A DNA stretch of 64,000 nt from IMG/VR virus record IMGVR_UViG_3300049893_000724, positions 64,001-128,000 of that record; one strand, given 5' to 3'. Numbering within the stretch: the first letter of the stretch is position 1; the number at the start of each line of letters is the position of its first letter. A program made the position numbers and the translations under genes. This stretch comes from a virus. Positions 7,666-60,988 of this stretch are shown here, one piece after another. The notes below the pieces were generated by a model. It was given only the letters and a program-made list of their open reading frames with translations, had not been told where the DNA came from and did no database searches.

Positions 7666-7794
7666 TAGTTTTAATTGAACTCTACATCCGTATAGGGAAA
7701 GCGCACTTCCCTCTTCTCAGAGGGCAGACCCCACGGCTCTAAATCAACTCAAAGTCTCATTATGAGAAAACCCACTTTTCAGTGGGTTATTAGC

Positions 7795-7823
7795 ATTATA
7801 AGTTTTTATTTAGATTTTGTCAA
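7795..7823 (-). promoter_or_regulatory. Sigma70-like promoter upstream of the lysozyme leader
   Basis: TTGACA-17nt-TATAAT, with TAAATA inside the spacer. Confidence 0.7.
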
Positions 7824-7993
7824 GATTCTGGTTCTAGAGAGACAATTTCTAATTCATCTCCTTCTGGTTCAATCCACTCATAGAACTCAGCAAGAATAGC
7901 ACGGGCATCCTCTTTTGGAATACTCATATCAGCAGCACGGTCAAGAGACCAAGTTCGTACATGAGCAACAATGTCTTCAGTCGTTGCATTCAT
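7820..7993 (-). CDS. 57-aa hypothetical protein
   Basis: Likely start MNATTEDIVAHVR; the longer ORF-track version overlaps the GIY-YIG gene. Confidence 0.6.
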   Translation of the reverse strand: MNATTEDIVAHVRTWSLDRAADMSIPKEDARAILAEFYEWIEPEGDELEIVSLEPES

Positions 7994-8420
7994 AATAGTC
8001 TTTTCGGAAGTACCTGTTGAGGATGTTGCTATTGTAGTATCTGGGTACTCCACTGTCAAGGGACTCTGTGAGGACGTTATGTGCGAATAGCTGTCGCGTT
8101 TCCTCAAAGTTTGTTTTGCCCTTTGTTTTATGTAATGATAAAATAGTGCGCGTAAAATTCTCCCTACCATACTTATCTACATCTTCCTTAAGTTCTGGAC
8201 ATGATCCGTAGTATTTTTTCCAATCAGACTCCGACTTAACTTTTCTAGATTTTCCTCTTGGTGTGCGGAAACTCCAGAAATACTTTCTACCAATATAGTC
8301 ACGATTAGTTTGGTTGCAATGAATATGATATACAAAACCAAAATAATCTTGAATATCACTTGAACCAAATACCTCTCCATTGTAGGTCCAAGGATTTTCA
8401 TAGTCAATATCTATACTCAT
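7977..8420 (-). CDS. GIY-YIG family endonuclease
   Basis: FGFVYHIHCNQTNRDYIGRK...YYGS...FEE...YYNSNI; start placed at MSIDIDYENP. Confidence 0.75.
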   Translation of the reverse strand: MSIDIDYENPWTYNGEVFGSSDIQDYFGFVYHIHCNQTNRDYIGRKYFWSFRTPRGKSRKVKSESDWKKYYGSCPELKEDVDKYGRENFTRTILSLHKTKGKTNFEETRQLFAHNVLTESLDSGVPRYYNSNILNRYFRKDYYECND

Positions 8421-8565
8421 CAAGAATGTATAACACTTCGTCCAGATATTTATGAGCAAGTCCTTTCATATCCATATCGTGCCTAACGTGCTCTGTGTGA
8501 AGTTGATTCTTGAGTTTTAAAACACGAACCTTAAGTTCTTCTTTCGTTATTTTATTTTTAGACAT
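8404..8565 (-). CDS. 53-aa hypothetical protein
   Basis: Manual translation MSKNKITKEELKVRVLKLKNQLHTEHVRHDMDMKGLAHKYLDEVLYILDEYRY*. Confidence 0.55.
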   Translation of the reverse strand: MSKNKITKEELKVRVLKLKNQLHTEHVRHDMDMKGLAHKYLDEVLYILDEYRY

Positions 8566-8590
8566 AAAAAAGAGGAGCTTATTGCTCCTC
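8566..8590 (-). terminator. Intrinsic terminator after nrdB region
   Basis: AGAGGAGC-AATAA-GCTCCTCTTTTT. Confidence 0.6.
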
Positions 8591-8743
8591 TATGTAGTAA
8601 TTATTGTTCATCCATTCATTACAATAGTCATAATCTCCAAACAAATACTCATCACACTCTGCAGCGTCTTTATATGCGTTCAGGATTGCCTGTTCGCACC
8701 ATTCATCATAGTTTGAATCCTGAGAAAGTATTTTTGGTAACAT
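8579..8743 (-). CDS. Small acidic hypothetical protein overlapping the nrdB end
   Basis: MLPKILSQDSNYDEWCEQAILNAY... Confidence 0.4.
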   Translation of the reverse strand: MLPKILSQDSNYDEWCEQAILNAYKDAAECDEYLFGDYDYCNEWMNNNYYIEEQ

Positions 8744-9890
8744 CTTGCTTGATTCCACCAACTACATATGATTCTACCTCCGTTTCCTGGGGAGCAACCT
8801 GAAGACCTTTGGAAGAAATCCAGTGCTGGGTCCAAGGAAGGGGATTATTGTTTGCTGAAATATCGTATTGGGGTTTTAATCCAATTGCTTTAAGTCTTCT
8901 GTTTGCAATCCATTCGACGTATTGCTGAAGAAGTTTGTCGTTCAGTCCAATCATGCTGCCATCTTTGAACAGATAATCTGCCCATCTCTTTTCTTCGTTT
9001 ACAGCACGATCAAACATCTTATACGTCCACTCCTCTTCTTCCTTCATAATCTGCTTCATTTCTGGATCATCACCATCACGCCATTTGTTTAAAATGTTTT
9101 GAGTGATAGCTAGATGTTGGTTTTCGTCTCTTGCGATAAGAGAGATGATCTTAGCGGATCCTTCCATAAGCTTAAGTTCGCCAAAGGCGAAACTACAAGC
9201 AAAACTAACGTAGAACCGAATACCTTCAAGAATGTTAACGTTTGCGACTGCTCTGTACAGTTTTCGTTTGACATCGTTGAGTGTTTCTTTTGCGTTTTGA
9301 ACTCCTTCAAGTCTGAACATCCAATCGTTGGAAGTTCCATAGTTTTGCGCTGACTGAATAAAGTCATCATATGATTCCGTAACGGTCTTAGCACGCTCCA
9401 GAATACGCTCATCCCTGATGATAGTATCAAATACCTCACTTGGGTCTGAATAAACGTTTTTAATGATGTAGGTGTATGAGCGACTATGGATCATCTCCAT
9501 AAATCCCCATACTTCCATACACGCCTCCAGTTCAGGAAGAGAGCAATATGGAATAAATGCCATACCAGGACCACGACCCTGAACTGAGTCAAGCATAATT
9601 TGATACTTTAAATTAGAAGTGTAGATATGCTTTTGTTCTGGGCGCAAAGTTTGATAGTCACCGCGATCCTTCTGGAGAGACACCTCTTCGGGTCTCCAGA
9701 AGTATCCAAGTTGCTGAGTAGTCAGTTTATCGAAGATAGGATATTTGTACGAATCATATCTCTGGATTCCAAGAGGTTGTCCAAAAAACATTGGTTGTTT
9801 TTTGGTGTCAACTTTTTCAGTATTAAAAACCGTCATTCCTTTGATTTGGGGTTCCTCTGTTGAGGAAATTTTAAACTGCACAGGATTCAC
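8706..9890 (-). CDS. nrdB: Class Ia ribonucleotide reductase beta subunit
   Basis: FWRPEEV, EMIHSRSY, LEGIRFYVSFA, RDENQH, C-terminal VAPQETEVESY. Confidence 0.97.
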   Translation of the reverse strand: MNPVQFKISSTEEPQIKGMTVFNTEKVDTKKQPMFFGQPLGIQRYDSYKYPIFDKLTTQQLGYFWRPEEVSLQKDRGDYQTLRPEQKHIYTSNLKYQIMLDSVQGRGPGMAFIPYCSLPELEACMEVWGFMEMIHSRSYTYIIKNVYSDPSEVFDTIIRDERILERAKTVTESYDDFIQSAQNYGTSNDWMFRLEGVQNAKETLNDVKRKLYRAVANVNILEGIRFYVSFACSFAFGELKLMEGSAKIISLIARDENQHLAITQNILNKWRDGDDPEMKQIMKEEEEWTYKMFDRAVNEEKRWADYLFKDGSMIGLNDKLLQQYVEWIANRRLKAIGLKPQYDISANNNPLPWTQHWISSKGLQVAPQETEVESYVVGGIKQDVTKNTFSGFKL

Positions 9891-12168
9891 ACTCTCCCTC
9901 CTCTACTGAACTTAACTCACTTAGCAAATCTTGAAGTTTGGGTTTTTCTTCTTCTACCTCATCATTCTTCATATCGTGAGTGTTTTGGTAGTAAGAAGTT
10001 TTCCACCCATACTTGTATGTAGTCAAAAAGTCTTGTGCCATCACGGACACTGGGACTTCGTTATCTTCGTAATTCTCCGGATTATAGGACCAGTTTCCAG
10101 AAATCGCTTGATCAAAGAACTTTTGCATAACAGCAACAATATTGATATACCCACGATTGCTAGGCATATCCCACAGTAACGTGTAATTGTTCTTAAGGGT
10201 ATGATACTGAGGAACGATTTGCTTGAGTGGTCCCTTCTTAGATTTCTTAACGGACAAGAATCCACGGGGAGGTTCAATTCCATTGGTTGCGTTTGACACA
10301 ACGGAACTGCTCTCCGATGGCATCTGTGCGGACAGTGTTGAGTGCCTGAGGCCGTGTTCCAAGATTGATGCTCTAAGACCTTCCCAATCATGTTGATAAG
10401 ATACTGAAGTGATTTCGTCTACGTCTTTCTTGTATGTATCGATTGGAAGAAGACCATCCGCATACTTTGTGCGACCAAAGTATTCACAGTGCCCCTTTTC
10501 TTTTGCAAGTTGGTTAGATGCTTTCAGTAGATAATACTGGAATGACTCCGAGAGTCCATGGACGGCATCCCATGCTTCTTGGGAATCATAATTAAAACCA
10601 AGTTTTGCCAAATAGTGTGCGAGACCAATAAATCCTATACCAAGGGAACGACGTGCCTTAGTGGCGATTTCTGCTGCCTCTACGGGGTACTTCTGATAGT
10701 CAATTAACTCATCAAGTCCACGTACTGAAAGGTCACAAAGTTCCTCAAGTTCTTCATCAGACTTTACCTTTCCAACATTAATAGCGGAAAGAATGCATAG
10801 TGCAATCTCACCAAACTTATCATCAATATGATTGATTGGATATGTTGGCAAAGTAATCTCTTGGCAAAGATTACTCATATTAACTTTATCCTTGAACGAT
10901 GAGTGAGAATTGCAATGGTCAATGTTCATGATGTAGACACGACCCGTCTCCGCACGTTCTTTAAGTAAGTTAAGGATGAGTTCCTGCGCTTTAATAGTTT
11001 TTTTCTTAACGGACGGATCTTTTTCATATTGTACGTAGAGATCATCAAACTCAGGGAGTCCAAAGCTATCATAAAGTCCAGGGACATCATGCGGAGAGAA
11101 AAGCGTGATCTCACCGTCTTGAATAAATCTTTCATAGAACAACTTGCTAATTTGAATTGAATAGTCAAGTTTACGGACACGATTATCTTCCGTACCCTTG
11201 TTATTTTTAAGAACAAGAATATCTTCTATTTCTTGGTGCCAGATTGGAAAGTGGACAGTAGCACTTCCACCGCGAATCCCGTTTTGTGTACAACATCTGA
11301 CAGTTGCCTCAAACTTTTTGAGAAATGGGACAACACCGGTATGCTGAACTTCACCGCCTCTGATTTTACTGTTGATGCCACGGATGCGACCTGCGTTGAT
11401 ACCAATTCCTGCTCTTTGAGCAACATAGCGACCAATTGCCATATCAGAGCTGAAGATGCTATCAAGGGTGTCATCAACGTCAACAAGAACGCAACTTGCA
11501 AATTGACGAAGTGGGGTTCTAACACCTGCCATGATTGGTGTAGGAATGTTGATTTTGTGCTTGGAGATTGCGTCATAGTACCTCCTGACGTATGACATTC
11601 TGGTTTCTTTGGGATATTCTGCAAAGATAGTCAGTGCAATCATCATGTACATAAATTGCGGAGTCTCATAAACTCCACCACCGCTCCTATCCTGCACGAG
11701 GTACTTATCAACGACTTGACGTAGACCTGCATAAGTGAACAGATAGTCACGGTCATGATCAATAAATGAATTAGCTTTATCAATCTCTTCCCGTGAATAC
11801 TTTGCAAAGATGTCTTTATCATATACATCGATGTTGGTGCAAGTGTAGATATGCTGTTCAAGATGAGGAAGTTCTTTCATCTTTCCATAAAGTTGTTTAC
11901 GAACAGCAAAAAGAAGCAGACGGGCAGCAACGAACTGATAATTTGGGTGATCTAGATCAATCAGGTCAGAAGCAGAACGAATCAGAATCTCCTGAATCTC
12001 TGCAGTTGTAATACCATCATAAAATTGAATACCAGACTTCATCTCTACTTGACTCGCAGATACGCCTGCAAGACCCTTGCACGCCTCTTCAACCATCAAA
12101 TGCATCTTGTCTAGGTCAAGAGATTCAATACGTCCATCACGCTTTTGTACTTTTGTTCCGTTGCTCAT
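9871..12168 (-). CDS. nrdA: Class Ia ribonucleotide reductase alpha subunit with ATP cone
   Basis: N-terminal VQKRDG ATP cone, FASCVL, SNLCQEI, MPSESSS, C-terminal CESCAV. Confidence 0.98.
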   Translation of the reverse strand: MSNGTKVQKRDGRIESLDLDKMHLMVEEACKGLAGVSASQVEMKSGIQFYDGITTAEIQEILIRSASDLIDLDHPNYQFVAARLLLFAVRKQLYGKMKELPHLEQHIYTCTNIDVYDKDIFAKYSREEIDKANSFIDHDRDYLFTYAGLRQVVDKYLVQDRSGGGVYETPQFMYMMIALTIFAEYPKETRMSYVRRYYDAISKHKINIPTPIMAGVRTPLRQFASCVLVDVDDTLDSIFSSDMAIGRYVAQRAGIGINAGRIRGINSKIRGGEVQHTGVVPFLKKFEATVRCCTQNGIRGGSATVHFPIWHQEIEDILVLKNNKGTEDNRVRKLDYSIQISKLFYERFIQDGEITLFSPHDVPGLYDSFGLPEFDDLYVQYEKDPSVKKKTIKAQELILNLLKERAETGRVYIMNIDHCNSHSSFKDKVNMSNLCQEITLPTYPINHIDDKFGEIALCILSAINVGKVKSDEELEELCDLSVRGLDELIDYQKYPVEAAEIATKARRSLGIGFIGLAHYLAKLGFNYDSQEAWDAVHGLSESFQYYLLKASNQLAKEKGHCEYFGRTKYADGLLPIDTYKKDVDEITSVSYQHDWEGLRASILEHGLRHSTLSAQMPSESSSVVSNATNGIEPPRGFLSVKKSKKGPLKQIVPQYHTLKNNYTLLWDMPSNRGYINIVAVMQKFFDQAISGNWSYNPENYEDNEVPVSVMAQDFLTTYKYGWKTSYYQNTHDMKNDEVEEEKPKLQDLLSELSSVEEGECESCAV

Positions 12169-15323: not shown

Positions 15324-16865
15324 TCAACCACCAATTCCAGATACTGGTGTTCCAGCAGGAGTTTGGCGGATTGCTTGAAGTCTTCTTTGAAGAATATTAA
15401 TTTCAGCAGACTTTGCTCTTTGAGCAGCAACTTTTGCTTTTGGGTCTGGTTGTGTTGATTGTGGTTGGGTTTTTGGTTGAAGTTCCATTGCCTGCTCAGC
15501 CATTTTCTTGGCCATCTTAGTAGCAGTTGCATACATCACTTCTTTACCACGACCAGGATATCTCTTTTCAAAATCTGCTGCTTTGTCCTTCATAGACTTT
15601 ACAATGTCTTCTTTCTTTTTAGTTTCAGCAGCAGTCAGTGTTTTCTCATCGAGTTGAACTTCTTCCTTTCTAACATCAGCAAGAAGAGCATCTAACTTAC
15701 TAGTTCTTTTCTTTTTTGCAGGTGCCTTTGCTTTCGGTGCTGCTGCTTTCTTTGCCTTTGCTTTTGGTGGAGTTGTTGCACTGCCCTCCCAAGGATCAGA
15801 GGGTTTTTCTGCTTTCTTTTTAGTAGGTGGGGTATAAGAACCGCTACTTACTTTTTCTTTTTGTCCTGCACCAGCACCACGATAAGTTGATGGTTTTCTT
15901 GCTGCGGTGCTTGGTTTTTTATCACCTGCTTCCATTTTGCGGGCAACACCCAATGCACCTTTAGCAACCTTTCTTGCTCCAGTTGCTACTGCTTGTTTTG
16001 CTGCTTTTTTAACACCAGCAAGCCTCTTTTTAGCAGCACCTAAAAGACTTTGCTTTTTCTTTTCTGCTGTTGGAGTATCGTGACCAAAAGTTACCTTTGC
16101 TTCAGTAATTGCAAATTCGATTGCCTCTTCAATATCATCCTCTTCATAACCTTCAATTAAAAGTTCATCATAAACACTTTCAATGACATAATCCATCTCA
16201 TCAATTTCGACCATTTCCAAAAGAACTCCACCAAGACCTTCGATTGCTTCGCCAAGATCAAGTTTAGGGTTGATAACAATTTTGTTATTAACTTGCTTTT
16301 CTACAATTTTTTGATCCTGATCTTTTTTGGTTTCAATTTTATCAACAACTTCGATTAGATCCTCTCTCCAATTTGAATATCCCTCCTTTCTAACTCCAAT
16401 CGCTTTACCAATAGCTTTTCTGCGCTTATGAAGATACTTATCAGACTTATCAGTATCGCCGTCATTATCAATATCAGCGTCTTCCTTACCAACAGGATCT
16501 AATGCCTCAGCAACGGGATCCTTTGATCTGGATTTCCAAGTTCCACCATACTCTTTACCCATCTGAGATTTAAATGCTTTCACTGCTTTTTTTCTTACAG
16601 ATGCTTTTGGATGATCAGACACATTCTGGAGGGGTGTTCTTCCGCTAGGTGCTTCTCCCTGCTCTGGATCTACAAATGCTTCATCAACACCCATAGATTT
16701 TCTAGCAGCCTTTACCATATCTTTATGCGCCTTAGTCTTCATCATTTCTTGACGTGCTTTTTCGTTTTCTTCAGCACGCTTTTTCATATCAGTTTCAAGG
16801 TGCGAAGATTCCGCAACTTGCTCCAGATATACTCTGGAAATATCATTCAGAGGATTGATTGACAT
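15324..16865 (-). CDS. Low-complexity K/E-rich protein, putative processed internal head protein
   Basis: 513 aa with many (V/I/L)xE|A/K sites and basic patches. Confidence 0.75.
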   Translation of the reverse strand: MSINPLNDISRVYLEQVAESSHLETDMKKRAEENEKARQEMMKTKAHKDMVKAARKSMGVDEAFVDPEQGEAPSGRTPLQNVSDHPKASVRKKAVKAFKSQMGKEYGGTWKSRSKDPVAEALDPVGKEDADIDNDGDTDKSDKYLHKRRKAIGKAIGVRKEGYSNWREDLIEVVDKIETKKDQDQKIVEKQVNNKIVINPKLDLGEAIEGLGGVLLEMVEIDEMDYVIESVYDELLIEGYEEDDIEEAIEFAITEAKVTFGHDTPTAEKKKQSLLGAAKKRLAGVKKAAKQAVATGARKVAKGALGVARKMEAGDKKPSTAARKPSTYRGAGAGQKEKVSSGSYTPPTKKKAEKPSDPWEGSATTPPKAKAKKAAAPKAKAPAKKKRTSKLDALLADVRKEEVQLDEKTLTAAETKKKEDIVKSMKDKAADFEKRYPGRGKEVMYATATKMAKKMAEQAMELQPKTQPQSTQPDPKAKVAAQRAKSAEINILQRRLQAIRQTPAGTPVSGIGG

Positions 16866-16866
16866 C

Positions 16867-18162
16867 TTAATAAGTACTTACTTTCTTTGCCTTATACTTA
16901 TTTATGAAATTGATGCCGTATGCCTTTCCACCTTTTTGAAGGTATTGTTTATTAGTTCCAACCGCACCTGGGGTCATTTTAGAATAATGAATAAAAGCTC
17001 CTTTTGTTCCAGTTAAAGTATTGGGATGAATTTTATCTCTCATTGGACTATCCATCTTAACTTCAGTATATTCCATCACATCTTTAATCCACGATTTAAA
17101 CATATGTCCATCTTCAGTCACACAAATAAGGTGATTGGTTCCTCTACGCATTACTTCACCAACCAATCCAGTATTTAAGTTTTGTACTGTATCACCAATT
17201 CTAAAAATATTTCCCATAACATAATTCTCACGAAGATTTCTCATATCAAACTTTGGTGCAATTTCCCAAAGATTATAATTTTCTTTCTTAACTTTTTCTT
17301 TCTTTGCACCCATCCCCTGACGAACAGCATTGAATAAATTTTGCGCCTCTCCATCATCAAGAGTTTTTGGAGTTCCTCTACGGAATGAAGCAAAGTCATT
17401 ATCAATAACTGCTTTTCTCATCTTAGATGCAGACATTCCTTCCACACCTTCTGCATCAGCATCACGAACACCTGCAGAGATCACACGAATTTGATCAAAG
17501 TTGTAAAGTTCGCCGTTATACTTTTGAGCAAGATTTTCAAACTCTGCTTGACGATCTGAACCAACAACGATATTGACTGAAGTATATCCGTCTTCGTTTG
17601 CAGTTACAAGAACATTGAAAATTGATTTCATCTCAGGGTCATTGATGATGTTATCCTTAAACTCAGGAAACATCTTCTTCATATACCCAACTTTTTTACT
17701 TGGATCCAGTGGGTTCTTCTTAGGATCCTGAGTTCTTGAAGGATAAATCTTAATATCACCACCAGCAGAAATTCTCTTCGCAGACTTGAGAAGTTTTTCG
17801 TGCCCTACTGTTGGTGGATTGAAGCGACCAAATACAATAGTTAAAGGTGGAAGTTCTTGCGGTTGCTCTTCAGGTGCCTGTGTCGCAGGTGCTGCCTGGG
17901 GTTGTGGTGCAGGTGCTTGTGCCGCTTGAGTTGGTTGCGGTGTTGGAGTTGGTGCAGCAGGTTGTCTTCCACCACCAGGTTCTGGTGCTCCTGCTTGCCT
18001 ACCATCAATGAACTTGAGTTTTCCTTTATCTGTCCTTGCTACCGTCTTTCCACTACGATCTACCCATCCTCCGTGACCGTCTCCACGAAGTCCAAGTTTT
18101 TTTGCCTGCATCGCCGCTTGCGATTCAGTTGCTTCAGATAAAAAATTGAGAAAACTCTTCAT
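16867..18162 (-). CDS. Cytidylyltransferase-like (HxGH-type) protein with Pro/Ala/Gln linker
   Basis: VFGRFNPPTVGHEKLL, VVGSDR, MSASKMR; late promoter ATAAATA upstream. Confidence 0.85.
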   Translation of the reverse strand: MKSFLNFLSEATESQAAMQAKKLGLRGDGHGGWVDRSGKTVARTDKGKLKFIDGRQAGAPEPGGGRQPAAPTPTPQPTQAAQAPAPQPQAAPATQAPEEQPQELPPLTIVFGRFNPPTVGHEKLLKSAKRISAGGDIKIYPSRTQDPKKNPLDPSKKVGYMKKMFPEFKDNIINDPEMKSIFNVLVTANEDGYTSVNIVVGSDRQAEFENLAQKYNGELYNFDQIRVISAGVRDADAEGVEGMSASKMRKAVIDNDFASFRRGTPKTLDDGEAQNLFNAVRQGMGAKKEKVKKENYNLWEIAPKFDMRNLRENYVMGNIFRIGDTVQNLNTGLVGEVMRRGTNHLICVTEDGHMFKSWIKDVMEYTEVKMDSPMRDKIHPNTLTGTKGAFIHYSKMTPGAVGTNKQYLQKGGKAYGINFINKYKAKKVSTY

Positions 18163-19153: not shown

Positions 19154-19915
19154 TCAGTATTCGTATCTGCTATCATCAACAGACTTACCTGCTCTTCTTG
19201 CTGCTTTGTTTCCACTTCCTCTATCACCTGCACCAAAATCAGATTCTCCACCACGACCACCTCTCGTGGCACGTTTAGCTGGATCTGCACTTACCTTACG
19301 ACTATATGCTGTTCCACCTGGTTTGTTCATTACTTTCTTGTAACGCTCACCAGTTAGTGCTTCACCAATCTCAACTTCCTCATGCTGCTTACGGAGTTTT
19401 GCAAGCACAGCACCTGCTACCTTTTCACCACGCTCTTTGGAACCATAACGCTTCCCTGCAGAAGCAGCAATCTTGGCGAATGCCTTACCAGGTTTACCAA
19501 TATCTTTACCCGCTCTTGCTGCCTTTGCTGAATATGATGCTTCAAGGATAGCATCAATCTCTTCAGATGAAAGTTGCGCCATCATCTGTTCAGGATTTTC
19601 GTGTCCCTCGGTTTGGAGATACTCAAGAACAGTATCAAAAATATCTACTTCCTCATGGGTCATTCCGACCACGGATGGTTTGGTTTTCTTAGTAACCTTA
19701 TCGTAGAACTTGATGTCTCTTTCCATTTTTTCAGCATTTGCTTTTCCTGCTGATGGAGAAAGACGCTTTTCACCACCTCTTCTTTCGGCAGCAGATGCTT
19801 TTCTCATCTCAGTATCATGGCGTGAAGCACCTTTTACTGCCTCATCAATTTCTTCCTGAGGAGCATAAACTTCAGAATATGCTTCTATCAAACCTCTAAG
19901 TTCTTTGCTATCCAT
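19154..19915 (-). CDS. Low-complexity basic/acidic modular protein, putative internal head protein
   Basis: 253 aa; EIDE|A, ILE|A, EIGE|A sites; late promoter upstream. Confidence 0.75.
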   Translation of the reverse strand: MDSKELRGLIEAYSEVYAPQEEIDEAVKGASRHDTEMRKASAAERRGGEKRLSPSAGKANAEKMERDIKFYDKVTKKTKPSVVGMTHEEVDIFDTVLEYLQTEGHENPEQMMAQLSSEEIDAILEASYSAKAARAGKDIGKPGKAFAKIAASAGKRYGSKERGEKVAGAVLAKLRKQHEEVEIGEALTGERYKKVMNKPGGTAYSRKVSADPAKRATRGGRGGESDFGAGDRGSGNKAARRAGKSVDDSRYEY

Positions 19916-34436: not shown

Positions 34437-34504
34437 AATCAGAGTGGTTTGTTTCAACTGAAGTCATTATAAAACAAAAAAGGGGTCTCTGGGACCCCGA
34501 GTGG

Positions 34505-34690
34505 TCAGTTAGCAAACTGGTTCTTAAGTTTTTGAAGGTGCTCTTGACTTCCAATACAACCTTTATAACCAGGATAGTATTTTTCTACTACAGAGTTAAT
34601 TCCCATAGCAGTAATGGCACTATCACACTTTACCCAAACTTCTTTGGTGTCATACTTTACAACGTGCTCAAATGGAAATTTAGTTTTCAA
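34505..34690 (-). CDS. Hypothetical protein
   Basis: 61 aa; ATGA coupling. Confidence 0.55.
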   Translation of the reverse strand: MKTKFPFEHVVKYDTKEVWVKCDSAITAMGINSVVEKYYPGYKGCIGSQEHLQKLKNQFAN

Positions 34691-35343
34691 TTTAATTCTC
34701 CAAGTGCCTTTGCCTTACGAACTTTATTAGGTCTTAATTTACCACCTGGATAGTTTCTTTCATCATTACCTTCAAAATCAGGATCTACATTAGCACGATG
34801 TCTTGCTGCTCTATCTGGAGAATATCTATCAGTATGAATATCCTTTCTGCGATTGGGAGCAATCTTATCTGCTGCTCTCTTTTCTTTTTGCTTGAGGGCA
34901 CTACGCTTCTTCTTATAATCTTTAAGAGTCATACCCTCTTCAATTTCAACTTCTTCTTTTCTTGTTCTTTCTGCTTGTTTGCGCTTAGCATATTGCATAT
35001 AAGTTTCACCTGGTTTTAGTCTATTACTATAATCGGGTTTTGTTTGTGCTGAGGTGCTTTGTCCTTTATCTTCACGGGCTCTCATCTGAGGTCCTTTGCC
35101 AGGAAGTTTCTTATCTTGCTCTGGATCTGGATGCCACCAATCACCAGCTTCATTTACAGATTTTTTCTTCGCTTTTTCTTTCTCCAACCAACCACCCTGC
35201 ATTACTCCTGATAAAGGAATTTTTACAGTTGGTTTATCATCAGGATGACCACCATAATCTCTACCTCTGTAATCTGTTCCACGATGGGGACGACCCGTGG
35301 AACGATCATAGGCTTCAAGTGCGAATTGTTGGTAGGTCTTCAT
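34687..35343 (-). CDS. Basic modular protein with T4 IP-like capsid-targeting N-terminus
   Basis: MKTYQQFALE|A; internal VNE|A and EIEE|G; ATAAATA upstream. Confidence 0.75.
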   Translation of the reverse strand: MKTYQQFALEAYDRSTGRPHRGTDYRGRDYGGHPDDKPTVKIPLSGVMQGGWLEKEKAKKKSVNEAGDWWHPDPEQDKKLPGKGPQMRAREDKGQSTSAQTKPDYSNRLKPGETYMQYAKRKQAERTRKEEVEIEEGMTLKDYKKKRSALKQKEKRAADKIAPNRRKDIHTDRYSPDRAARHRANVDPDFEGNDERNYPGGKLRPNKVRKAKALGELN

Positions 35344-35366
35344 ATCTACGGATACTTTTTAGGTAT

Positions 35367-37550
35367 TTATGCCACGAGAGAAATGAACTCACCAAGAACT
35401 TTTTTATTCAGTTTTTTAGTTTTCAATGATTTTACAAAGGCAGATTTGATTTGAGATTTAGTAGCATCTTCAGCAACATCAAATTCAGTATCTTGAGACA
35501 GAGCAGTTGAAGACAAACCAAAGTAAGCATCATAACCAGAATTCGTAATTGTAAAACTCTTCAGTTTCTTCCAATCACTTTGAATTTTTTGATATTGTTT
35601 ATCGTTGTCATAGTGATAGAGACTAATGAAGCGATTTGCATTGCGACTCTCAAGAACACGAATGCCGATGAAATTTACCGAAGGAAACTTATCCTTTAAA
35701 TTATGGAGAAGAGTATCGGTAAATTGATGATATCCATAATCAAACTTATAGGTGGTTCCAAGTTTACGGTCACGAAGGAAAGTTTTATGGGGATTAACAC
35801 CAGCGATGCCAATACGAGGCTCACTTTCCCAAGCACGTTTTACTTCACGATGATAAGGAAGATGATTTGCCTCACCATCAGTTAGAACAATACACTGAAC
35901 TTTCTGGAGTTTATTTTCACGTTGAAACTTAGGAAGAATTTGATGAAGAGAAACTAATGCTTCATTCAGAGGAGTTCCAGAGAGAGACAAACGATTTGGA
36001 TAAGTATAAGGAGTTTGATAAGTGTCTCCAAAGTAAACAGCGAGACGCCAAATGTTTAACATTTGATTCTCTAGTTCTTTACCAGAAACTTTACTGGTAA
36101 GAATATTCATCAAGGAAAAACTCTCATCAATAGAGAGAAGATTTTCTTTCTTCTCGTAGTGAGAGGTTCTATCAGCGGGTTTGAACATTCCAGTTGCATA
36201 ATCGTGCTCTCCACGACGCCATTCATTAGTAAAAGCATAAACCTCAAAGGGAATAGAGACTTTTTTACAAAACCACACGAGGTTGAACAGTTGCTTACAA
36301 GTATCAGTCAGTACTTGAGACATTGAACCAGACCAGTCCAGAACAAACACTAGACCGTGATTTTTGCCGTCAGGAATTATAGACACTTTTTTGAAAAGAT
36401 CTTCATTGTATTTGTAAGTATGAAGACGAGCAGTATCAAGAACTCCAGTGCGAGCAGTAGAGGCACGGGAATAAGAATCTGCTGCCTTACGGCACTCAAA
36501 CTCTTTTACCAGATAGTTGACTTCTTTCTGAGCGGATACTTTAAACTTCTTAAATTCAGTATCTGCTTTCAGAAACAAACTTTCGGGAGTAAGATGTTTG
36601 TAATTTTCTTTTAGAGTTTGTTCGTAGGACTTTTGCTGTTGGTGAAAAGAAGCATCAATATGGGTATGAACTTCATCATTCTTACCAATAATAGTTTCAA
36701 GATTAACTTGAGGAATTTCTACATAAACATTTTCATAACCATCATCATTCACCAGATCACGAATTTTATCCTCCAAATTATCCGCAGTGCGGACCTCAGG
36801 TTCTTCACTATGGTCCGGAATCATATCAGGACCCGATTGAGTAGGGCCCTCATTTTCATTTTGCTGTGCTTCTGATTTGTTAGTTTCTCCCTCTTGTTCC
36901 TCATCACTTTGCTCACTTTCCACGTTTTGTTGAGTAGAAGAATTGGAATTACCCTGAGTTTCGTGATCATCAAAATTGGAAACTTTTTGCTCCTGTTCTT
37001 TTTCTTTTTTACAGTATTGATAGAGTGCTTCAGCAGCGTCCAGAACATCATCAAACGTTTCAGTTTCTGCAATCCTATTAATAATATCCATCTCCTCACC
37101 ACGCTTAATAGGAACGTCAATGAAGTTTCCAACCTTAAACCACAGGTTTGCGCGGTCAGCAAGATTCATCTCACCAACTTTCTCATCTTCAAGTTGAAAG
37201 AAATCCTCTTCGTTCAATTCTTTATAACCATTGAAGAAAGTCTTAGCAAGTCCCAGATACTTACGCTTCATCAGTTTCTCAATACGGGCATCTTCCACCA
37301 CATTCACAAACTGAGCAGGGACTTTTACTTTTTCAGTCCAATCTTCATCAGGAGTAAAGAGAGCATGACCAACTTCGTGACCCACCAGCAGGTCATACAC
37401 AGTGTTGCTTGCCTTTTCCCATAGAGGCAGAGTGAGCACACGAGTATGAACGTTGAAGCAAGCGGTTGCTACTTTCTTGTGCTCCACCACAAGGTCTTCC
37501 GTGGCAAGCAGTTTAGCAAGTTGGGACTTGATTTCGTGACTGACAGGCAT
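35367..37550 (-). CDS. Metallopeptidase-like + VWA (CobT-like) protein
   Basis: GHEVGH and VVEDARIE at the N-terminus; MIDAS DWSGS...TP...LTDG at the C-terminus. Confidence 0.88.
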   Translation of the reverse strand: MPVSHEIKSQLAKLLATEDLVVEHKKVATACFNVHTRVLTLPLWEKASNTVYDLLVGHEVGHALFTPDEDWTEKVKVPAQFVNVVEDARIEKLMKRKYLGLAKTFFNGYKELNEEDFFQLEDEKVGEMNLADRANLWFKVGNFIDVPIKRGEEMDIINRIAETETFDDVLDAAEALYQYCKKEKEQEQKVSNFDDHETQGNSNSSTQQNVESEQSDEEQEGETNKSEAQQNENEGPTQSGPDMIPDHSEEPEVRTADNLEDKIRDLVNDDGYENVYVEIPQVNLETIIGKNDEVHTHIDASFHQQQKSYEQTLKENYKHLTPESLFLKADTEFKKFKVSAQKEVNYLVKEFECRKAADSYSRASTARTGVLDTARLHTYKYNEDLFKKVSIIPDGKNHGLVFVLDWSGSMSQVLTDTCKQLFNLVWFCKKVSIPFEVYAFTNEWRRGEHDYATGMFKPADRTSHYEKKENLLSIDESFSLMNILTSKVSGKELENQMLNIWRLAVYFGDTYQTPYTYPNRLSLSGTPLNEALVSLHQILPKFQRENKLQKVQCIVLTDGEANHLPYHREVKRAWESEPRIGIAGVNPHKTFLRDRKLGTTYKFDYGYHQFTDTLLHNLKDKFPSVNFIGIRVLESRNANRFISLYHYDNDKQYQKIQSDWKKLKSFTITNSGYDAYFGLSSTALSQDTEFDVAEDATKSQIKSAFVKSLKTKKLNKKVLGEFISLVA

Positions 37551-43671: not shown

Positions 43672-44222
43672 AAGGGATTGCCGGAAAGATCAGTTATATT
43701 GTAAATAGTATACTTGAAAGCAACGTCTGCTGTAAAGTATTGAATATCTGTTTGTGTTGCATCAAATGTAAGTGTCCCCAAACTATATGGAAAAAGATCT
43801 TTAAATTGAACTTGAAAGTTTGGTATTTGACTACTAGTTAAAATTTGGAGAGTCCCATCTGAATAAATGTTCAGACCCTTTTGAACATAGTTTGCTCCAC
43901 CATAAGCATCAGAATCATTTAACTCTGCAAATTGACTTAGTTTTTCTGGATATCCTAGACCACGAATCCAATTTTGAATTGCATTATAATTTTCTAAATT
44001 TTCATCAACAATAAATCTAAGATTCAAATCCCCAAAAATAATCTTGTCGCCTGGAATATCAATATCTTTTAGATATGTGGGTTGATTTGCAATTCCCAAT
44101 GTCAATTCTGGTATGTTTGCCTCATTGGCAAAAAATGAAACTTTAGGAAATCTAGTTAATGTAAATTTAAATCCTGTTGGCGATAGAAAATTTCTATTCT
44201 CTATCTGAGATGCTTTTGCCAT
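43668..44222 (-). CDS. gp3: Tail completion / tube terminator protein
   Basis: NRNFLSPTGFKF...FGDLNLRFIVDENLENY; position after gp23. Confidence 0.75.
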   Translation of the reverse strand: MAKASQIENRNFLSPTGFKFTLTRFPKVSFFANEANIPELTLGIANQPTYLKDIDIPGDKIIFGDLNLRFIVDENLENYNAIQNWIRGLGYPEKLSQFAELNDSDAYGGANYVQKGLNIYSDGTLQILTSSQIPNFQVQFKDLFPYSLGTLTFDATQTDIQYFTADVAFKYTIYNITDLSGNPL

Positions 44223-44243
44223 CTTTTTTTAAATATTTAGAAT

Positions 44244-44269
44244 AAAAAAGGGACCCTCTAGGGGTCCCT
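44244..44269 (-). terminator. Terminator after the major capsid gene
   Basis: AGGGACCCC-TAGA-GGGTCCCTTTTTT. Confidence 0.75.
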
Positions 44270-44289
44270 GAAAATTTATGTGAAATGGA

Positions 44290-45726
44290 TCACATGAGGT
44301 TCTTAACAGCAACTCTTCTGTAGTAACGGTTTGCGTCGAGGCGCAGTCTACCGAGACCCTGAGTTGTGCCTTCAGCGAATGGGTTAGCAACAAGACCATA
44401 ACGGGTCTTAAAGCCAATCTTTGGCTGGAAGCTGTTCTCACCAACGGCACGTACCATTTGGAGAGGAACATATGGGCAGTAGAAGAGACCTGCGTCATAA
44501 GGAGATGAACCCTTATAACCAACAACATAATACTGGTTACCTGGGGTTGCGTTAGCAGAGGTCAGGTTAGCAGCATATGGATCGATGTATACGCGGAACT
44601 TACCTAGCAGAGTACCTGCGAAGGTGTTACCGGTGTCATCAACATTCAGGTTAGCGTTGAGTGCTGGGGTGTAATCCAGAACACCAGCCATGGTTAGAGC
44701 GGAAGCAACGTCTGCAGAGCAGAGGATGATGTTGCCCTTTCCACGACGAGTTCTCTGAGCGATTGCGTTTGCATCACGCTCAATCTGGAACAGGAGACCC
44801 TTGAACTTCTCAACTGACCAACGACCATTGGAGTCGATGTCGAGGTCGAAGATACCAGGAGTTGCAACGTTCTGTACAGCACCTTGCTCAGCAACCTTGT
44901 AGATGGTTCTGATAACTTCGCGGTTGATTTCAGCAAGAATCTCAGTTGAGAGAATGTTTGCTAATTCTGCTTCAGCATTCAGACCGTGGATTGCCTTGAG
45001 GTCCTGAGCGAGTTCTAGTGAATACTCAGCCTTCAGAGCGCGTGACTTTGCAGTAACGGTAACTTTCTCGATGCTGAATGCCATCTGGTTGAAAGCATCA
45101 GTGGTGCTTCCATCAAGATTTTCAGCGTCGCCAGTTGCCATACCCTGACCAACGTTATATGGTGAGGGGTTGGTGGTTGCAGTACCAACTGGGTTTAGAA
45201 CTGATGGGTTGGTGCCGCTCTGTGCGGTTGTACCGAAACCAACAGGACCATCCGAATAACCAGCGGTCTCGTCGAATCCAGCATCGTTTCCAGAGAATGC
45301 TGAATCTACTTCGTTATAGAAGGTTTCAGCACCAGTCTGTGACTGATAACGTGAACGCATTGCGAAGATGAGTCCAGTAGGACCGCTCATTGGTTGAACG
45401 CCAGCGAGGTCATAAGCGACCAAGTTTGGCATTGAACGACGGATTAGGCTGATTAGAACTGGGTCGAAACCTGCAGTTGGACCACCAGCAGCGGATGTGC
45501 CACCGAAACCGCCTGAACCACCAGCTGAGTTTGCGCTGTTGGTTGGTGACTCGGTAAGCATACCCATTGAGCCGCTCTCAAAAGAAGCTTGCTCTCTTAG
45601 GAATTTTTCTTGGTTCTCTAACAGGACAGCGGTTACCGCTCTACGATGCGAATCTTTGATTGAATCAAGACCCTCATAGTTGAGGATAGGAGCCCACTTT
45701 TCCTGCAATTGTTCGGAATGGAACAT
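44290..45726 (-). CDS. gp23: Major capsid protein
   Basis: DPVLISLIRRSMPNL, VQPMSGPTGLIFAMR, FYCPYVPLQM, KTRYG. Confidence 0.98.
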   Translation of the reverse strand: MFHSEQLQEKWAPILNYEGLDSIKDSHRRAVTAVLLENQEKFLREQASFESGSMGMLTESPTNSANSAGGSGGFGGTSAAGGPTAGFDPVLISLIRRSMPNLVAYDLAGVQPMSGPTGLIFAMRSRYQSQTGAETFYNEVDSAFSGNDAGFDETAGYSDGPVGFGTTAQSGTNPSVLNPVGTATTNPSPYNVGQGMATGDAENLDGSTTDAFNQMAFSIEKVTVTAKSRALKAEYSLELAQDLKAIHGLNAEAELANILSTEILAEINREVIRTIYKVAEQGAVQNVATPGIFDLDIDSNGRWSVEKFKGLLFQIERDANAIAQRTRRGKGNIILCSADVASALTMAGVLDYTPALNANLNVDDTGNTFAGTLLGKFRVYIDPYAANLTSANATPGNQYYVVGYKGSSPYDAGLFYCPYVPLQMVRAVGENSFQPKIGFKTRYGLVANPFAEGTTQGLGRLRLDANRYYRRVAVKNLM

Positions 45727-47002: not shown

Positions 47003-47653
47003 TTACAATGAGTTGATAAACTCATTGAATAGTGATAACTTGTATTCTTCAAGAATACCTTGATCAACTAGAGTATTTATACTACGTTTAGCGTGCTCTG
47101 CTGCCTTTTCCTTCAAAATGCCACCATCCCACACCCATTCTTTACCTTCCATAATTCCCTGAACAAAAGCATCAGGAGCTGAAGGATCTGCTACAATATC
47201 AGCGGCAGTTGCTAGCATAAAATCTTCACCAACTTCAGCATATCCTTCATTGTTTTGTTTTACTGAACCAATACCACGAGAGGAAACGCCAAGAGTAACT
47301 CCTTCTTTTAGAAGTGATTCGGCAATCTTACCCATTGGGGTAGAAAGAATTTGTGCCTTACCAATAAAGTTGTTACCCTCTCTTTGAAGAGAAACAATTT
47401 TATGAGAAACGCGATCAAGGTTTACTGTTGGGCCATCTGGATGTCCAAGTTCACCAAGAGCACGACCTTTGTTTACATACTGCTCGGTGTAACGCTTTAC
47501 CTCTCTTTCCATAACAGGCATACGATACATTCTACCGTTACGGTTCACCACTTCAGTTTGAAGGAAAGGTCCTTGAATATAGAGAGTTTTTTTGCCGTTT
47601 ACACTTTCAGTAATAACTTCTACTGCTTCGATTTCTTCGGTAATGAGTTTCAT
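47003..47653 (-). CDS. gp21: Prohead protease
   Basis: GELGHP, VSSRGIGS, DIVADPSAPDAFV. Confidence 0.96.
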   Translation of the reverse strand: MKLITEEIEAVEVITESVNGKKTLYIQGPFLQTEVVNRNGRMYRMPVMEREVKRYTEQYVNKGRALGELGHPDGPTVNLDRVSHKIVSLQREGNNFIGKAQILSTPMGKIAESLLKEGVTLGVSSRGIGSVKQNNEGYAEVGEDFMLATAADIVADPSAPDAFVQGIMEGKEWVWDGGILKEKAAEHAKRSINTLVDQGILEEYKLSLFNEFINSL

Positions 47654-59138: not shown

Positions 59139-60833
59139 TTAATTACAGTTCCAACGACGAAGTGCTTTGTTTATATTGCTATCCGGGTCTCTTGCGGTTT
59201 TTGCTGAAGTCAATTTTGACTTCATCCCCTTCATTCTACGGCAAAAAGACTTACGACGTGCTGCTCTTTTACCTTCTGGATTTTTTTCAGTAACTGCAGT
59301 TTGGAGTTTTGAACCTGGATTCTCACGGCGATATGCTTTTACTGCAGCAGGACTTAATCCATCAGTTTTATCTTGACGATTTACTTTTTGCCAGTCTTCA
59401 TCAACTTCAACTTCTTCGCCCATAGGCTTTACGTAGTTTTTATTAAAACCCGGTTTTCCCGCACTACCGCCTTGATAACCAATTCTGATTAATGGTTGTC
59501 CTGGTTGAATTTCTGAAACTGAATGATAAATTACTTTTGCGCCTGGATAAACCTTTTCAATTTCACTAGAGATTTCACTTCTGGTCGGTAGTTTTGTTTG
59601 TGGGAAAAACATTTGTATGCCGTGATACTTCCCTCTCCAAGAAATAGTAATTGAAATTATATTTCCAGTCTCTGCTTGCAATCTAGTTGCTTCTTCAACC
59701 TGAGACTTAAATCCTTTAATTGGTTCTGGGTTAATTAAATCAACGACCTCAGCAAAGGTGTTTCCATTTGCATCTTCTATTGTTTGCTCAGGAACGCAGT
59801 TTGGAACCATTTTCTTTCCTTTCTTTTTCATGCCAACTTGCTTATAACCAGACCAACACGCTTCATCCATTTCCCCACTTGCAACATAATCTGCCGCAGT
59901 ATCAATATAATCTGCTGCTTTTGTAATTTTAGATTGTACCCATGCTTCTAAATCTCCTTCACCTTTACCTACTTTCATTTGAAGTCTTTTTACAGCATCA
60001 GCAATAGTTTTTAACTCAGATCTTGCCATTGAATATTCATGATCTTTAATGGAAACCTTATCCCATGCCTTTCCGCCATATGAACATTCAGATCTAGTTT
60101 CTCTCTTATCACACAATGGACAGTATCTTTGTTCTTCAACTGCTTCTGACTTAGTTCCCCAGTTATCCGCACCAACTTTGCGGCACTTGACTAATGCACC
60201 TGAAGCATATGCACTTGGCCAAACACTATAACGTGATTTTACTTTGTGGTAGCAAGCATCTTTTTTGCCGCTACCTTTACCTGGTTTATCTTTTGCTTCT
60301 TGTACATCCATTTCTTCTTTCATTTTCTTTCTAGGTGAATCTGTAGAAACATAGGTTGGTTTTGCGGCACCTGATTTTTGTTGCTGGCCAGGATCCGCTT
60401 CTTTTTTTCTTCTTGCTGCAGATAGTCTCTCTGCTTTAGTCATAGTCGCTCTTTTTGCAGAAGAAACACACTTAGGAACTCCTTCTCCAGGTTCATCACT
60501 TGCACATGTCCCACCAGTTACTACATTAACCCAACCAGACTTTCCATCTTTTGATTTAGACTTTCCAAACCAATCACGAAGTCCCTCTTCGGTAACATCT
60601 TTAAATTTTTTATGGTGCTTCTTAGCATCCGCTTCCATTTTTTTCAAACGAGTATAATAATCTGGTATTTCATCCAGATGTTGAAGAGCAATGTCCATTG
60701 CAAGTTCATGATCTTTAGTGTGTTCATGTTCAATAGGTTCACCCATATCAAGTTGCTTCTGAATGAAAGAAACATCAAGACGATGCTTTTTTGCAATCTG
60801 CTCAACTGTTTTATGTGGTTTAATTTTGGGCAT
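59139..60833 (-). CDS. Modular basic polyprotein-like protein (DUF5661-like N-terminus)
   Basis: 564 aa of short modules separated by E|A/E|G/E|D sites; five modules carry Cys pairs. Confidence 0.75.
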   Translation of the reverse strand: MPKIKPHKTVEQIAKKHRLDVSFIQKQLDMGEPIEHEHTKDHELAMDIALQHLDEIPDYYTRLKKMEADAKKHHKKFKDVTEEGLRDWFGKSKSKDGKSGWVNVVTGGTCASDEPGEGVPKCVSSAKRATMTKAERLSAARRKKEADPGQQQKSGAAKPTYVSTDSPRKKMKEEMDVQEAKDKPGKGSGKKDACYHKVKSRYSVWPSAYASGALVKCRKVGADNWGTKSEAVEEQRYCPLCDKRETRSECSYGGKAWDKVSIKDHEYSMARSELKTIADAVKRLQMKVGKGEGDLEAWVQSKITKAADYIDTAADYVASGEMDEACWSGYKQVGMKKKGKKMVPNCVPEQTIEDANGNTFAEVVDLINPEPIKGFKSQVEEATRLQAETGNIISITISWRGKYHGIQMFFPQTKLPTRSEISSEIEKVYPGAKVIYHSVSEIQPGQPLIRIGYQGGSAGKPGFNKNYVKPMGEEVEVDEDWQKVNRQDKTDGLSPAAVKAYRRENPGSKLQTAVTEKNPEGKRAARRKSFCRRMKGMKSKLTSAKTARDPDSNINKALRRWNCN

Positions 60834-60988
60834 TATTCAACTGGTTTTGATTTAGTCTGCTCACCTTTTGCTCTTTTTTTTCTCCCCGCACAATGAGCAC
60901 GTTGAGAAAATCCTTTTGGATTTGAGCAATCAATACTCTTTTTATATTTATTAGTCCACTCTTCTTGAAACTGCTTAAACGTTTTCAT
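60833..60988 (-). CDS. 51-aa basic peptide with IPI-like capsid-targeting N-terminus
   Basis: MKTFKQFQEEWTNKYKKSIDCSNPKGFSQRAHCAGRKKRAKGEQTKSKPVE*; coupled to both neighbours. Confidence 0.65.
   Translation of the reverse strand: MKTFKQFQEEWTNKYKKSIDCSNPKGFSQRAHCAGRKKRAKGEQTKSKPVE

Follow-up and report, generated by a model that had tools for sequence, protein, structure and literature searches.

A leader resembling the T4 capsid-targeting sequence heads a modular gene in a variable slot of a T4-like cyanophage

Introduction

Internal protein I (IPI) of bacteriophage T4 blocks a host restriction nuclease. IPI and its companions IPII and IPIII are small, basic, late proteins that begin with a short tag, and this report concerns a gene of similar plan in a T4-like cyanomyovirus. 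The gene lies at positions 34687-35343 (minus strand) of a 64,000-nucleotide stretch of viral DNA, hereafter the window, which comprises positions 64,001 to 128,000 of the 184,459-bp IMG/VR genome record IMGVR_UViG_3300049893_000724 (estimated to be 88% complete). Its 218-residue product is basic (isoelectric point (pI) 9.8) and begins MKTYQQFALEAYDR; a sequence-only reading of the window had singled it out as bearing a nearly exact copy of the T4 IPII/IPIII leader. All coordinates refer to the window unless they are marked as genome coordinates.

For the T4 capsid-targeting sequence (CTS; Mullaney and Black, 1996), the accessible part of a review (PMC9026906) states that the first ten residues of the protein suffice for head targeting, with leader residues 4 and 7 acting in targeting and residues 8 and 10 acting in processing. 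The same text describes other basic proteins with CTS-like leaders in related T-even phages, which in T2, T6 and others replace IPI-III (Repoila et al., 1994).

The cyanophage open reading frame (ORF) resembles the T4 internal proteins in carrying the ten-residue tag MKT[YF]Q[EQ]F..E followed by Ala, in encoding a small basic protein, in being probably late (as judged by a promoter motif), and in sharing its genome with a gp21-type protease gene. It differs from them in that no similarity extends past residue 11, in that residue 8 is Ala, and in that the host of the phage is a cyanobacterium. Moreover, the ORF encodes a chain of three modules with internal cut motifs, whereas the T4 proteins lose only their leader according to the accessible text of PMC9026906. 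The location of the gene offers a further parallel. At the polymorphic internal-protein loci of T-even phages, as portrayed in review descriptions, the position is fixed and the leader is kept while the cargo varies among close relatives, and the same is true of the slot between a peptidase gene and cobS that holds the cyanophage ORF. The cyanophage slot is distinguished by being combinatorial, with modules and an enzyme gained or lost at protease motifs.

Two other kinds of packaged protein are relevant. T4 Alt and the ejection proteins of SPN3US-type giant phages are also head-packed cargo trimmed by a prohead protease; going by their descriptions in partially accessible sources, they are set apart by different leaders and by the lack of any sequence relation. 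A nearer comparison is the S-adenosylmethionine (SAM) hydrolase ORF6 of cyanophage S-CREM2, with the T3-type family PF23780, because relatives of the gene described here carry this domain in the same slot behind a similar leader. The studied ORF is without the SAM-lyase domain, and ORF6 is located elsewhere in its own genome. No targeting signal for the virion enzymes of S-CREM2 is named in the accessible part of the report on that phage (PMC10665884).

Results

A leader resembling the T4 capsid-targeting sequence

The leaders of the T4 internal proteins were taken from the T4 record (NC_000866), in which both IPII and IPIII begin MKTYQEFIAEA, and IPI begins MKTFKEF and carries ITE/A at residue 19 (the slash marks the bond after the motif). 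Pairwise BLASTP of the cyanophage protein against IPIII and IPII aligns residues 1-11 with 8 of 11 identities (E-values 0.003-0.01) and nothing beyond them, which bears out the sequence-only reading on this point. Both targeting determinants, Y4 and F7, are present in the leader MKTYQQFALE. Among the processing determinants, E10 and A11 are present and residue 8 is Ala, a position occupied by V, I, M, T or A in relatives. Taken together, 67 unique related leaders give the consensus M-K/R-T-F/Y-Q-E-F-[MVI]-x-E-A. It agrees with T4 at positions that lie outside the search pattern used to find such leaders (T3, Q5, E6, hydrophobic 8, E10 and A11).

The pattern MK[TS][FY]xxF is found at the N-terminus of seven of the 1938 ATG-initiated ORFs of at least 30 codons in the whole genome record, against 0.14 expected from the frequency of the motif inside ORFs (approximately 50-fold enrichment). 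The proposal that the leader marks a dispersed gene family is supported for a scattered set of probably late genes, and the similar leaders that had been pointed out at 60988, 18162 and 27502 are all present there, the last one without Glu at position 10 (Table 1). The restriction of position 3 to T or S does not carry over to other cyanophages. For example, the cytidylyltransferase starts M[KR]x[FL]xxF[LF]xE/A in P-TIM68, S-RIM8, ACG-2014f, S-SSM4 and Bellamy. In 367 of 558 phage records, a homologue of this enzyme reaches a coverage of 80% or more, and the alignments start at residue 1 in most of the 60 that were listed. The leader heads unrelated kinds of cargo, including a SAM lyase, a kinase, the cytidylyltransferase and the basic modules described below.

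A protease that could process such a leader is encoded in the same window. The gp21-type gene product matches PF03420 (5.7e-39) and is 43% identical to T4 gp21. The major capsid protein carries LTE in its N-terminal part, the place where T4 cuts gp23 after Glu65, and these three residues do not vary among T4, this phage and S-CREM2.

Module junctions coincide with protease motifs

The ORF protein contains exactly three sites of the form [LIVMAF]-x-E/[AGST], namely ALE/A at residue 10, VNE/A at residue 65 and IEE/G at residue 136. Shuffled versions of the protein contain 0.8 such sites on average (P=0.037), which is weak support when taken alone, and the case for processing rests instead on comparisons of module junctions among relatives. 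In these relatives, the leader is fused directly to AGDWWHPD (the start of module M2), to GMT.KD.K (M3) or to TSLTR (the SAM lyase) at the same residues. Counted over 170 unique relatives, [LIVM]-x-E stands directly before the module junction in 206 of 207 cases, irrespective of the upstream part. Module M1 stands alone between the leader and the SAM-lyase domain in three loci (L043, L057 and L075), direct fusion of the leader to M2 is seen for example in P0045 and L017, and M3 occurs behind three different classes of leader. The three basic modules that had been read from the sites VNE/A and EIEE/G are thus the units that relatives shuffle, and they do so exactly at those sites.

Modules M2 and M3 are under purifying selection. 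The ratios of nonsynonymous to synonymous substitution rates (dN/dS) for these modules range from 0.09 to 0.20, including comparisons with alleles that lack the enzyme; M2 gives 0.15 against the M2-only allele L157, and M3 gives 0.09-0.20. Values for L043, L057, L031, L028, L044, L017 and L159 were not used because the local alignments overrun the shared module.

Searching phage records with tblastn, from which near relatives of the window may have been excluded, recovers only residues 55-124 and no full-length relative among named phages. A Pfam scan of the 218-residue protein matched no family, and a PHROGs scan matched M2 alone, to two families of unknown function (phrog_727 and phrog_11470). 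The phrog_727 profile aligns at positions 193-280 of 450 with residues 57-151 of the ORF (E=4e-13). Membership of the ORF in this family was rejected, as one module only is shared. The family corresponds to the modular 'virion protein' polyproteins encoded between g16 and g17 (phrog_727, with a DUF6321 C-terminus), of which ACG-2014d gp085 shares M2 (52.9% identity over residues 55-124), there preceded by ILE. S-SCSM1 ORF29, a homologue of the 564-residue gene product of this phage, is annotated as a virion protein and is without M2. In contrast to the ORF, these polyproteins do not themselves begin with an MKT-type leader.

A separate observation concerns M3. Contigs in two RNA libraries from different studies join positions 34689/34691 to 34966/34968, which skips 276 bases in frame and would delete the C-terminal 92-93 residues (M3 and the preceding linker). 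At one of these joints, the support on one side amounts to just 25 letters, and the sequences at both belong to relatives, not to the exact phage. The skip suggests that a single module is present in some natural relatives and absent from others.

An enzyme-less allele of a conserved slot

A search with the ORF protein found 224 relatives (120 of them listed), and a scan of IMG/VR with P0007 found 274 relatives, from which 80 loci were kept. The full gene order of peptidase, leader gene, 61-codon ORF (orf61) and cobS is present in 69 of the 80 loci, and the remaining 11 lack a neighbor because the contig ends first. In the phage described here the flanking genes encode a 754-residue 'peptidase' (phrog_459) and a CobS-like AAA ATPase (phrog_249, PF07728), and all 414 records that match the DNA around the ORF are from cyanophages or marine viruses. 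Every related locus with sufficient flanking sequence has this slot. The gene therefore does not represent an odd insertion, and its earlier description as inserted in the early region has to be given up. The downstream orf61 follows the leader gene directly in 79 of 80 related loci, regardless of the cargo, and is translationally coupled to it in this phage. The idea that orf61 is a remnant of the SAM-lyase domain was rejected.

Within this constant setting, the content of the leader gene varies widely. The pattern M[KR][TS][FY]xxF starts 71 of the 80 slot genes, and the remaining nine comprise three that are cut at contig ends, four whose upstream ATG is probably not the start, and two with another N-terminus. 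Alleles among the 80 loci carry from zero to three basic modules plus the SAM-lyase domain. The shortest architecture consists of the leader and SAM lyase only (170 residues; 42 of 80 loci), and the others have M1, M2 or M3 inserted. Among the matches listed, the nearest full-length relatives are P0007 (85% identity) and P0008 (76%), which have the same three modules and continue from ...KAKALGELG into the PF23780 SAM-lyase domain exactly where the ORF ends. P0006 (88% identity, 213 residues) ends where the ORF ends. The PF23780 domain is present in the slot relatives P0007, P0012, P0022 and P0045, and a search of the whole genome record of this phage, the ORF included, gave no PF23780 match. 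Membership of the ORF in this SAM lyase family is thereby ruled out.

A second scan, in which the ORF served as query, revealed enzyme-less alleles in the same slot at 12 of 14 further loci examined. These comprise leader plus M3 (94-99 residues), leader plus M2 (74 and 100 residues) and two longer forms. The ORF itself ends at a module junction, with the enzyme part cleanly missing and not interrupted by a stop codon. In addition, a contig from a sequencing run of a second study covers positions 34479-35142, including the orf61 junction, with zero differences, and therefore the enzyme-less allele is not a quirk of assembly in one sample. Only two runs (X1 and X2) contain half or more of the sampled words, and X1 is possibly the source sample; runs with small shares were not used for conclusions on habitat. 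Judging by its content and gene order, the ORF is an enzyme-less allele of a conserved but hypervariable cargo slot.

A late-promoter-like motif precedes the gene

Late expression is suggested by a T4-type motif. The sequence-only reading had placed a late promoter about 22 nucleotides upstream of the gene, and the sequence ATAAATA is indeed present, at a distance of 20 nucleotides (Table 1). Among the leader-bearing relatives, 62 of 71 have TAAATA no more than 60 nucleotides upstream, most commonly at 20 nucleotides. Across the genome, ATAAATA occurs 47 times on the minus (coding) strand and three times on the plus strand, a bias that agrees with a late-promoter role in a genome whose late genes are on the minus strand. 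The motif precedes several starts of head and tail operons and does not precede the two genes that flank the ORF. Contigs from RNA libraries (X19 and X20) span parts of the gene, and because carry-over of DNA is possible they give no proof of transcription.

Related leaders occur on proteins found in virions

Published virion proteomes offer a means to examine whether proteins with such leaders are packaged. For S-CREM2, 52 virion proteins are reported among 219 coding sequences (PMC10665884). The pattern of the sequence-only reading in its wider form, with T or S at position 3, matches no annotated gene of this phage. When position 3 is freed (M[KR]x[FY]xxF), four ORFs match, of which three are annotated, and all three of these encode virion proteins (hypergeometric P=0.013). 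They are the SAM hydrolase ORF6 (MKDFDSFLEE; 19 unique peptides), the kinase ORF14 (GTG start, MKRFDAF) and the cytidylyltransferase ORF154 (MKNFSSF) (PMC10665884). Two further virion proteins begin with close variants of the leader, ORF136 with MQTFSMFFSE and ORF13 with MKDLHSFLTE. A looser pattern, M..[FYLW]..[FL]..[ED], was discarded as unspecific, since it matches 20 S-CREM2 ORFs that are mostly unannotated or non-virion.

In S-SCSM1 (MK867354), one of two annotated leader-bearing genes encodes a virion protein according to the accessible part of PMC9602691, namely ORF91, a nicotinamide mononucleotide adenylyltransferase (NMNAT). The accessible text of PMC3037559 names the S-SM1 cytidylyltransferase T4-GC190 among the proteins detected in the virion, and this protein starts MKKFSAFLNE. 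Thus, within the accessible parts of these reports, a leader-bearing cytidylyltransferase or NMNAT has been detected in virions of three phages (S-SM1, S-SCSM1 and S-CREM2). Enrichment in virions, whose absence had been named as the refutation of this family, is seen in S-CREM2 with position 3 freed (three of three); S-SCSM1 gives one of two, and the pattern restricted to T or S has nothing to match among annotated S-CREM2 genes.

Two side observations bear on S-CREM2 virion proteins. The virion 'CRISPR-Cas9 nuclease' ORF12 (7704-10313 of the S-CREM2 record) has a leader-like sequence, ...LRFASFMAE/A, at residues 17-26 rather than at its annotated start, and either that start is wrong or the address acts from an internal position. 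Furthermore, a conserved stretch of about 35 residues (A..A.K.GL...G.G.W.D..GK...) directly follows the leader of the cytidylyltransferase encoded in the window (residues 11-55). It is found again behind the leader of ORF14, the virion kinase of S-CREM2, and near the start of ORF12, and matches the N-terminus of phrog_3561. This stretch may contribute to the loading signal as a second element.

Coordinates of the locus and of other leader-bearing genes

The features discussed above are collected in Table 1.

Table 1. Features of the slot gene, its surroundings and other leader-bearing ORFs of the genome record.
Feature	Position	Strand	Remarks
Late-promoter-like motif ATAAATA	35364..35370	-	Ends 20 nucleotides 5' of the ATG
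Leader, residues 1-10 (MKTYQQFALE)	35314..35343	-	Likeness to T4 capsid-targeting sequence
Module M1, residues 11-65	35149..35313	-	pI 9.6; C-terminal VNE
Module M2, residues 66-136 (AGDWWHPDPE...)	34936..35148	-	pI 8.2; C-terminal IEE; phrog_727/phrog_11470 match
Module M3, residues 137-218 (GMTLKDYKKK...)	34690..34935	-	pI 10.3; stop codon 34687-34689
orf61, 61 codons	34505..34690	-	TTG start overlapping the stop of the leader gene; no Pfam/PHROGs family
Terminator-like GC-rich hairpin and T-run	34476..34498	-	Recognized by eye from the sequence; closes the unit of leader gene and orf61
cobS promoter TATAAT	34466-34471	-	3' of the hairpin, ahead of cobS
gp21-type prohead protease gene	47003..47653	-	PF03420, 5.7e-39
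Cytidylyltransferase, 431 residues (phrog_395)	16867-18162	-	MKSFLNFLSE
51-codon ORF	60833-60988	-	MKTFKQFQEE; between small terminase gene and 564-codon phrog_727 gene
61-codon ORF	27502		MKSFDEFQKI; no Glu at position 10
201-codon ORF	genome 165923		Matches leader pattern; beyond the window
63-codon ORF	genome 166535		Matches leader pattern; beyond the window
42-codon ORF (doubtful)	13975		Matches leader pattern

Discussion

A probable head-targeted precursor of three basic peptides

The reading that we favor, and to which we would assign a probability of about two in three, is that the ORF is expressed late and encodes a precursor destined for the head, which the prohead protease divides into three basic peptides, and that it represents an enzyme-less allele of a slot that delivers a SAM lyase in relatives. 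Under this model, the ORF would be transcribed late from its own T4-type late promoter, and the first ten residues of the protein would act as a T4 capsid-targeting sequence that brings the precursor into the core of the assembling prohead. The gp21-type protease would then cut after [LIVM/A]-x-E at residues 10, 65 and 136, to yield three basic peptides that are small and mostly disordered (55, 71 and 82 residues). These peptides would remain in the head with the DNA and reach the next host alongside it. We infer the targeting, cutting, head retention and delivery of this protein, as well as the action of its peptides. The SAM-lyase domain found in the related alleles destroys SAM, the cofactor on which SAM-dependent host defenses rely. 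From the domain content of the alleles, an anti-defense role is plausible only for the long forms that carry this domain, which is absent in this phage.

Several points weigh against this model. The first cut site of the ORF (ALE/A) has Ala three residues before the cut, where T4 and most relatives have I, L, V or M, and as a consequence the leader might be cut poorly or left uncut. The relatives are not independent of each other, and thus the count of 206 among 207 junctions overstates the number of separate events. The three of three obtained with S-CREM2 is a small number, and it is partly post hoc because position 3 was freed after the zero result and after the N-termini of the S-CREM2 virion proteins had been viewed. 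One leader-bearing protein, S-SCSM1 ORF30 (106 residues), is not marked as a virion protein, and the accessible text of PMC10665884 cautions that abundant late proteins may contaminate CsCl-purified particles. Detection in virions concerns proteins of leader-bearing relatives and not the modules M1-M3 of this ORF. Finally, the ESM Atlas model of the ORF protein is of low confidence (predicted local distance difference test (pLDDT) score 0.52; predicted template modeling (pTM) score 0.18), and hence no fold backs any activity. ESM Atlas yielded no named look-alike above 0.84, and the structure matches all had template modeling (TM) scores below 0.4, which is not meaningful. Such low model confidence is compatible with a disordered basic protein and proves nothing further.

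Alternative explanations

Fragments of the T4 scaffold leave the head after cutting, before or during DNA packaging. By analogy, the peptides might be head-assembly material only, with fragments that exit the head before or during packaging, or they might be counter-ions for DNA, and in either case they would have no effector role in the next host. We consider this explanation unlikely, even though it is consistent with the basic nature of all three modules (Table 1), with the low-confidence structure model, and with the failure of Pfam and PHROGs to match the ORF to any family of known activity. What argues against it is that the same slot and leader also carry a SAM lyase, for which a sensible use exists only in the next host. 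Furthermore, the modules are optional, as evident by their complete absence from the 42 of 80 loci that hold the leader and SAM lyase alone, which speaks against a requirement in assembly, and they are under purifying selection even where the enzyme is missing.

Less probable still is the idea that a packaged SAM-lyase gene lost its enzyme domain and that the ORF is what remains of it, without any function. This proposal would explain why P0007 and P0008 run into PF23780 exactly at the end of the ORF and why the genome record, as far as it is complete, has no PF23780 match. However, the reading frame, the leader, the promoter motif and the coupling to orf61 are all intact, and the enzyme is missing cleanly at a module junction rather than by a stop-codon break. 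Enzyme-less alleles of several architectures recur at the 12 other loci, in P0006 and in the run of the second study, and dN/dS stands at 0.09-0.20. That the N-terminus is a generic start module, serving translation efficiency or another partner, with a convergent or coincidental likeness to T4, is hardly credible: the T4 match has modest E-values and S-SCSM1 ORF30 is not reported in virions, but the motif is strongly enriched at N-termini, leader positions that were not selected for agree with T4, and the leader sits on unrelated cargo (SAM lyase, kinase, cytidylyltransferase and basic modules) whose enzymes are the very 'unexpected' non-structural proteins of virion proteomes.

Novelty and implications

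If the ORF is indeed a head-targeted precursor, the underlying mechanism is that already known for the T4 internal proteins, and what differs is a cargo built as a chain of modules, with an optional enzyme, that is exchanged at protease motifs. We found no literature that links the T4-type tag to cyanophages in a search that covered openly accessible papers without their supplements. Two reviews (PMC2993671 and PMC2984593) contain no internal-protein or targeting terms, and literature searches with the leader strings returned T4 vaccine work only.

The enzymes found in cyanophage virions (SAM hydrolase, kinases and cytidylyltransferase or NMNAT) have so far been published without explanation, and a shared T4-type tag would account for their entry. 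If this is true, genome sequence would suffice to predict which proteins are packaged and injected by hundreds of cyanophages from oceans and lakes. The slot exemplifies the evolution of cargo by gain and loss of modules at protease motifs, a simple and testable route to payload diversity in the arms race between phage and host. Because the tag is so close to that of T4, the established genetics of T4 offer a direct test of the idea.

More speculatively, T4 and the T4-like cyanophages might share an ancient and portable ten-residue address by which any protein could be loaded into the head. Genes bearing it would then be fast-evolving injected payloads, cut motifs would serve as safe joints at which recombination could exchange modules and enzymes with both neighbors left intact, and the three peptides of this phage would be effectors against host defenses or for early takeover. 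We regard this wider scheme as tentative, with the odds against it as a whole.

Other leaders and neighboring genes

Two other types of leader were noted in the same genome. The sequence MDSKELRGLIEAYSEVYAPQEEIDE/A begins a 253-codon ORF (19154-19915, minus strand) and MSINPLNDISRVYLEQVAESSHLE/T begins a 513-codon ORF (15324-16865, minus strand), each behind TAAATA. Relatives show each of the two fused to M3, the module that also follows the MKT-type leader, and these types may be alternative head addresses. When the 80 loci are sorted by leader, 31 fall in class 1, six in class 2, seven in class 3 and 34 in other classes.

A small leader-bearing ORF also adjoins the modular 'virion protein' gene between g16 and g17, with overlapping stop and start codons. 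It encodes 51 residues in this phage and 106 residues in S-SCSM1 (44215-44535), and it is located before the modular gene in the former and after it in the latter.

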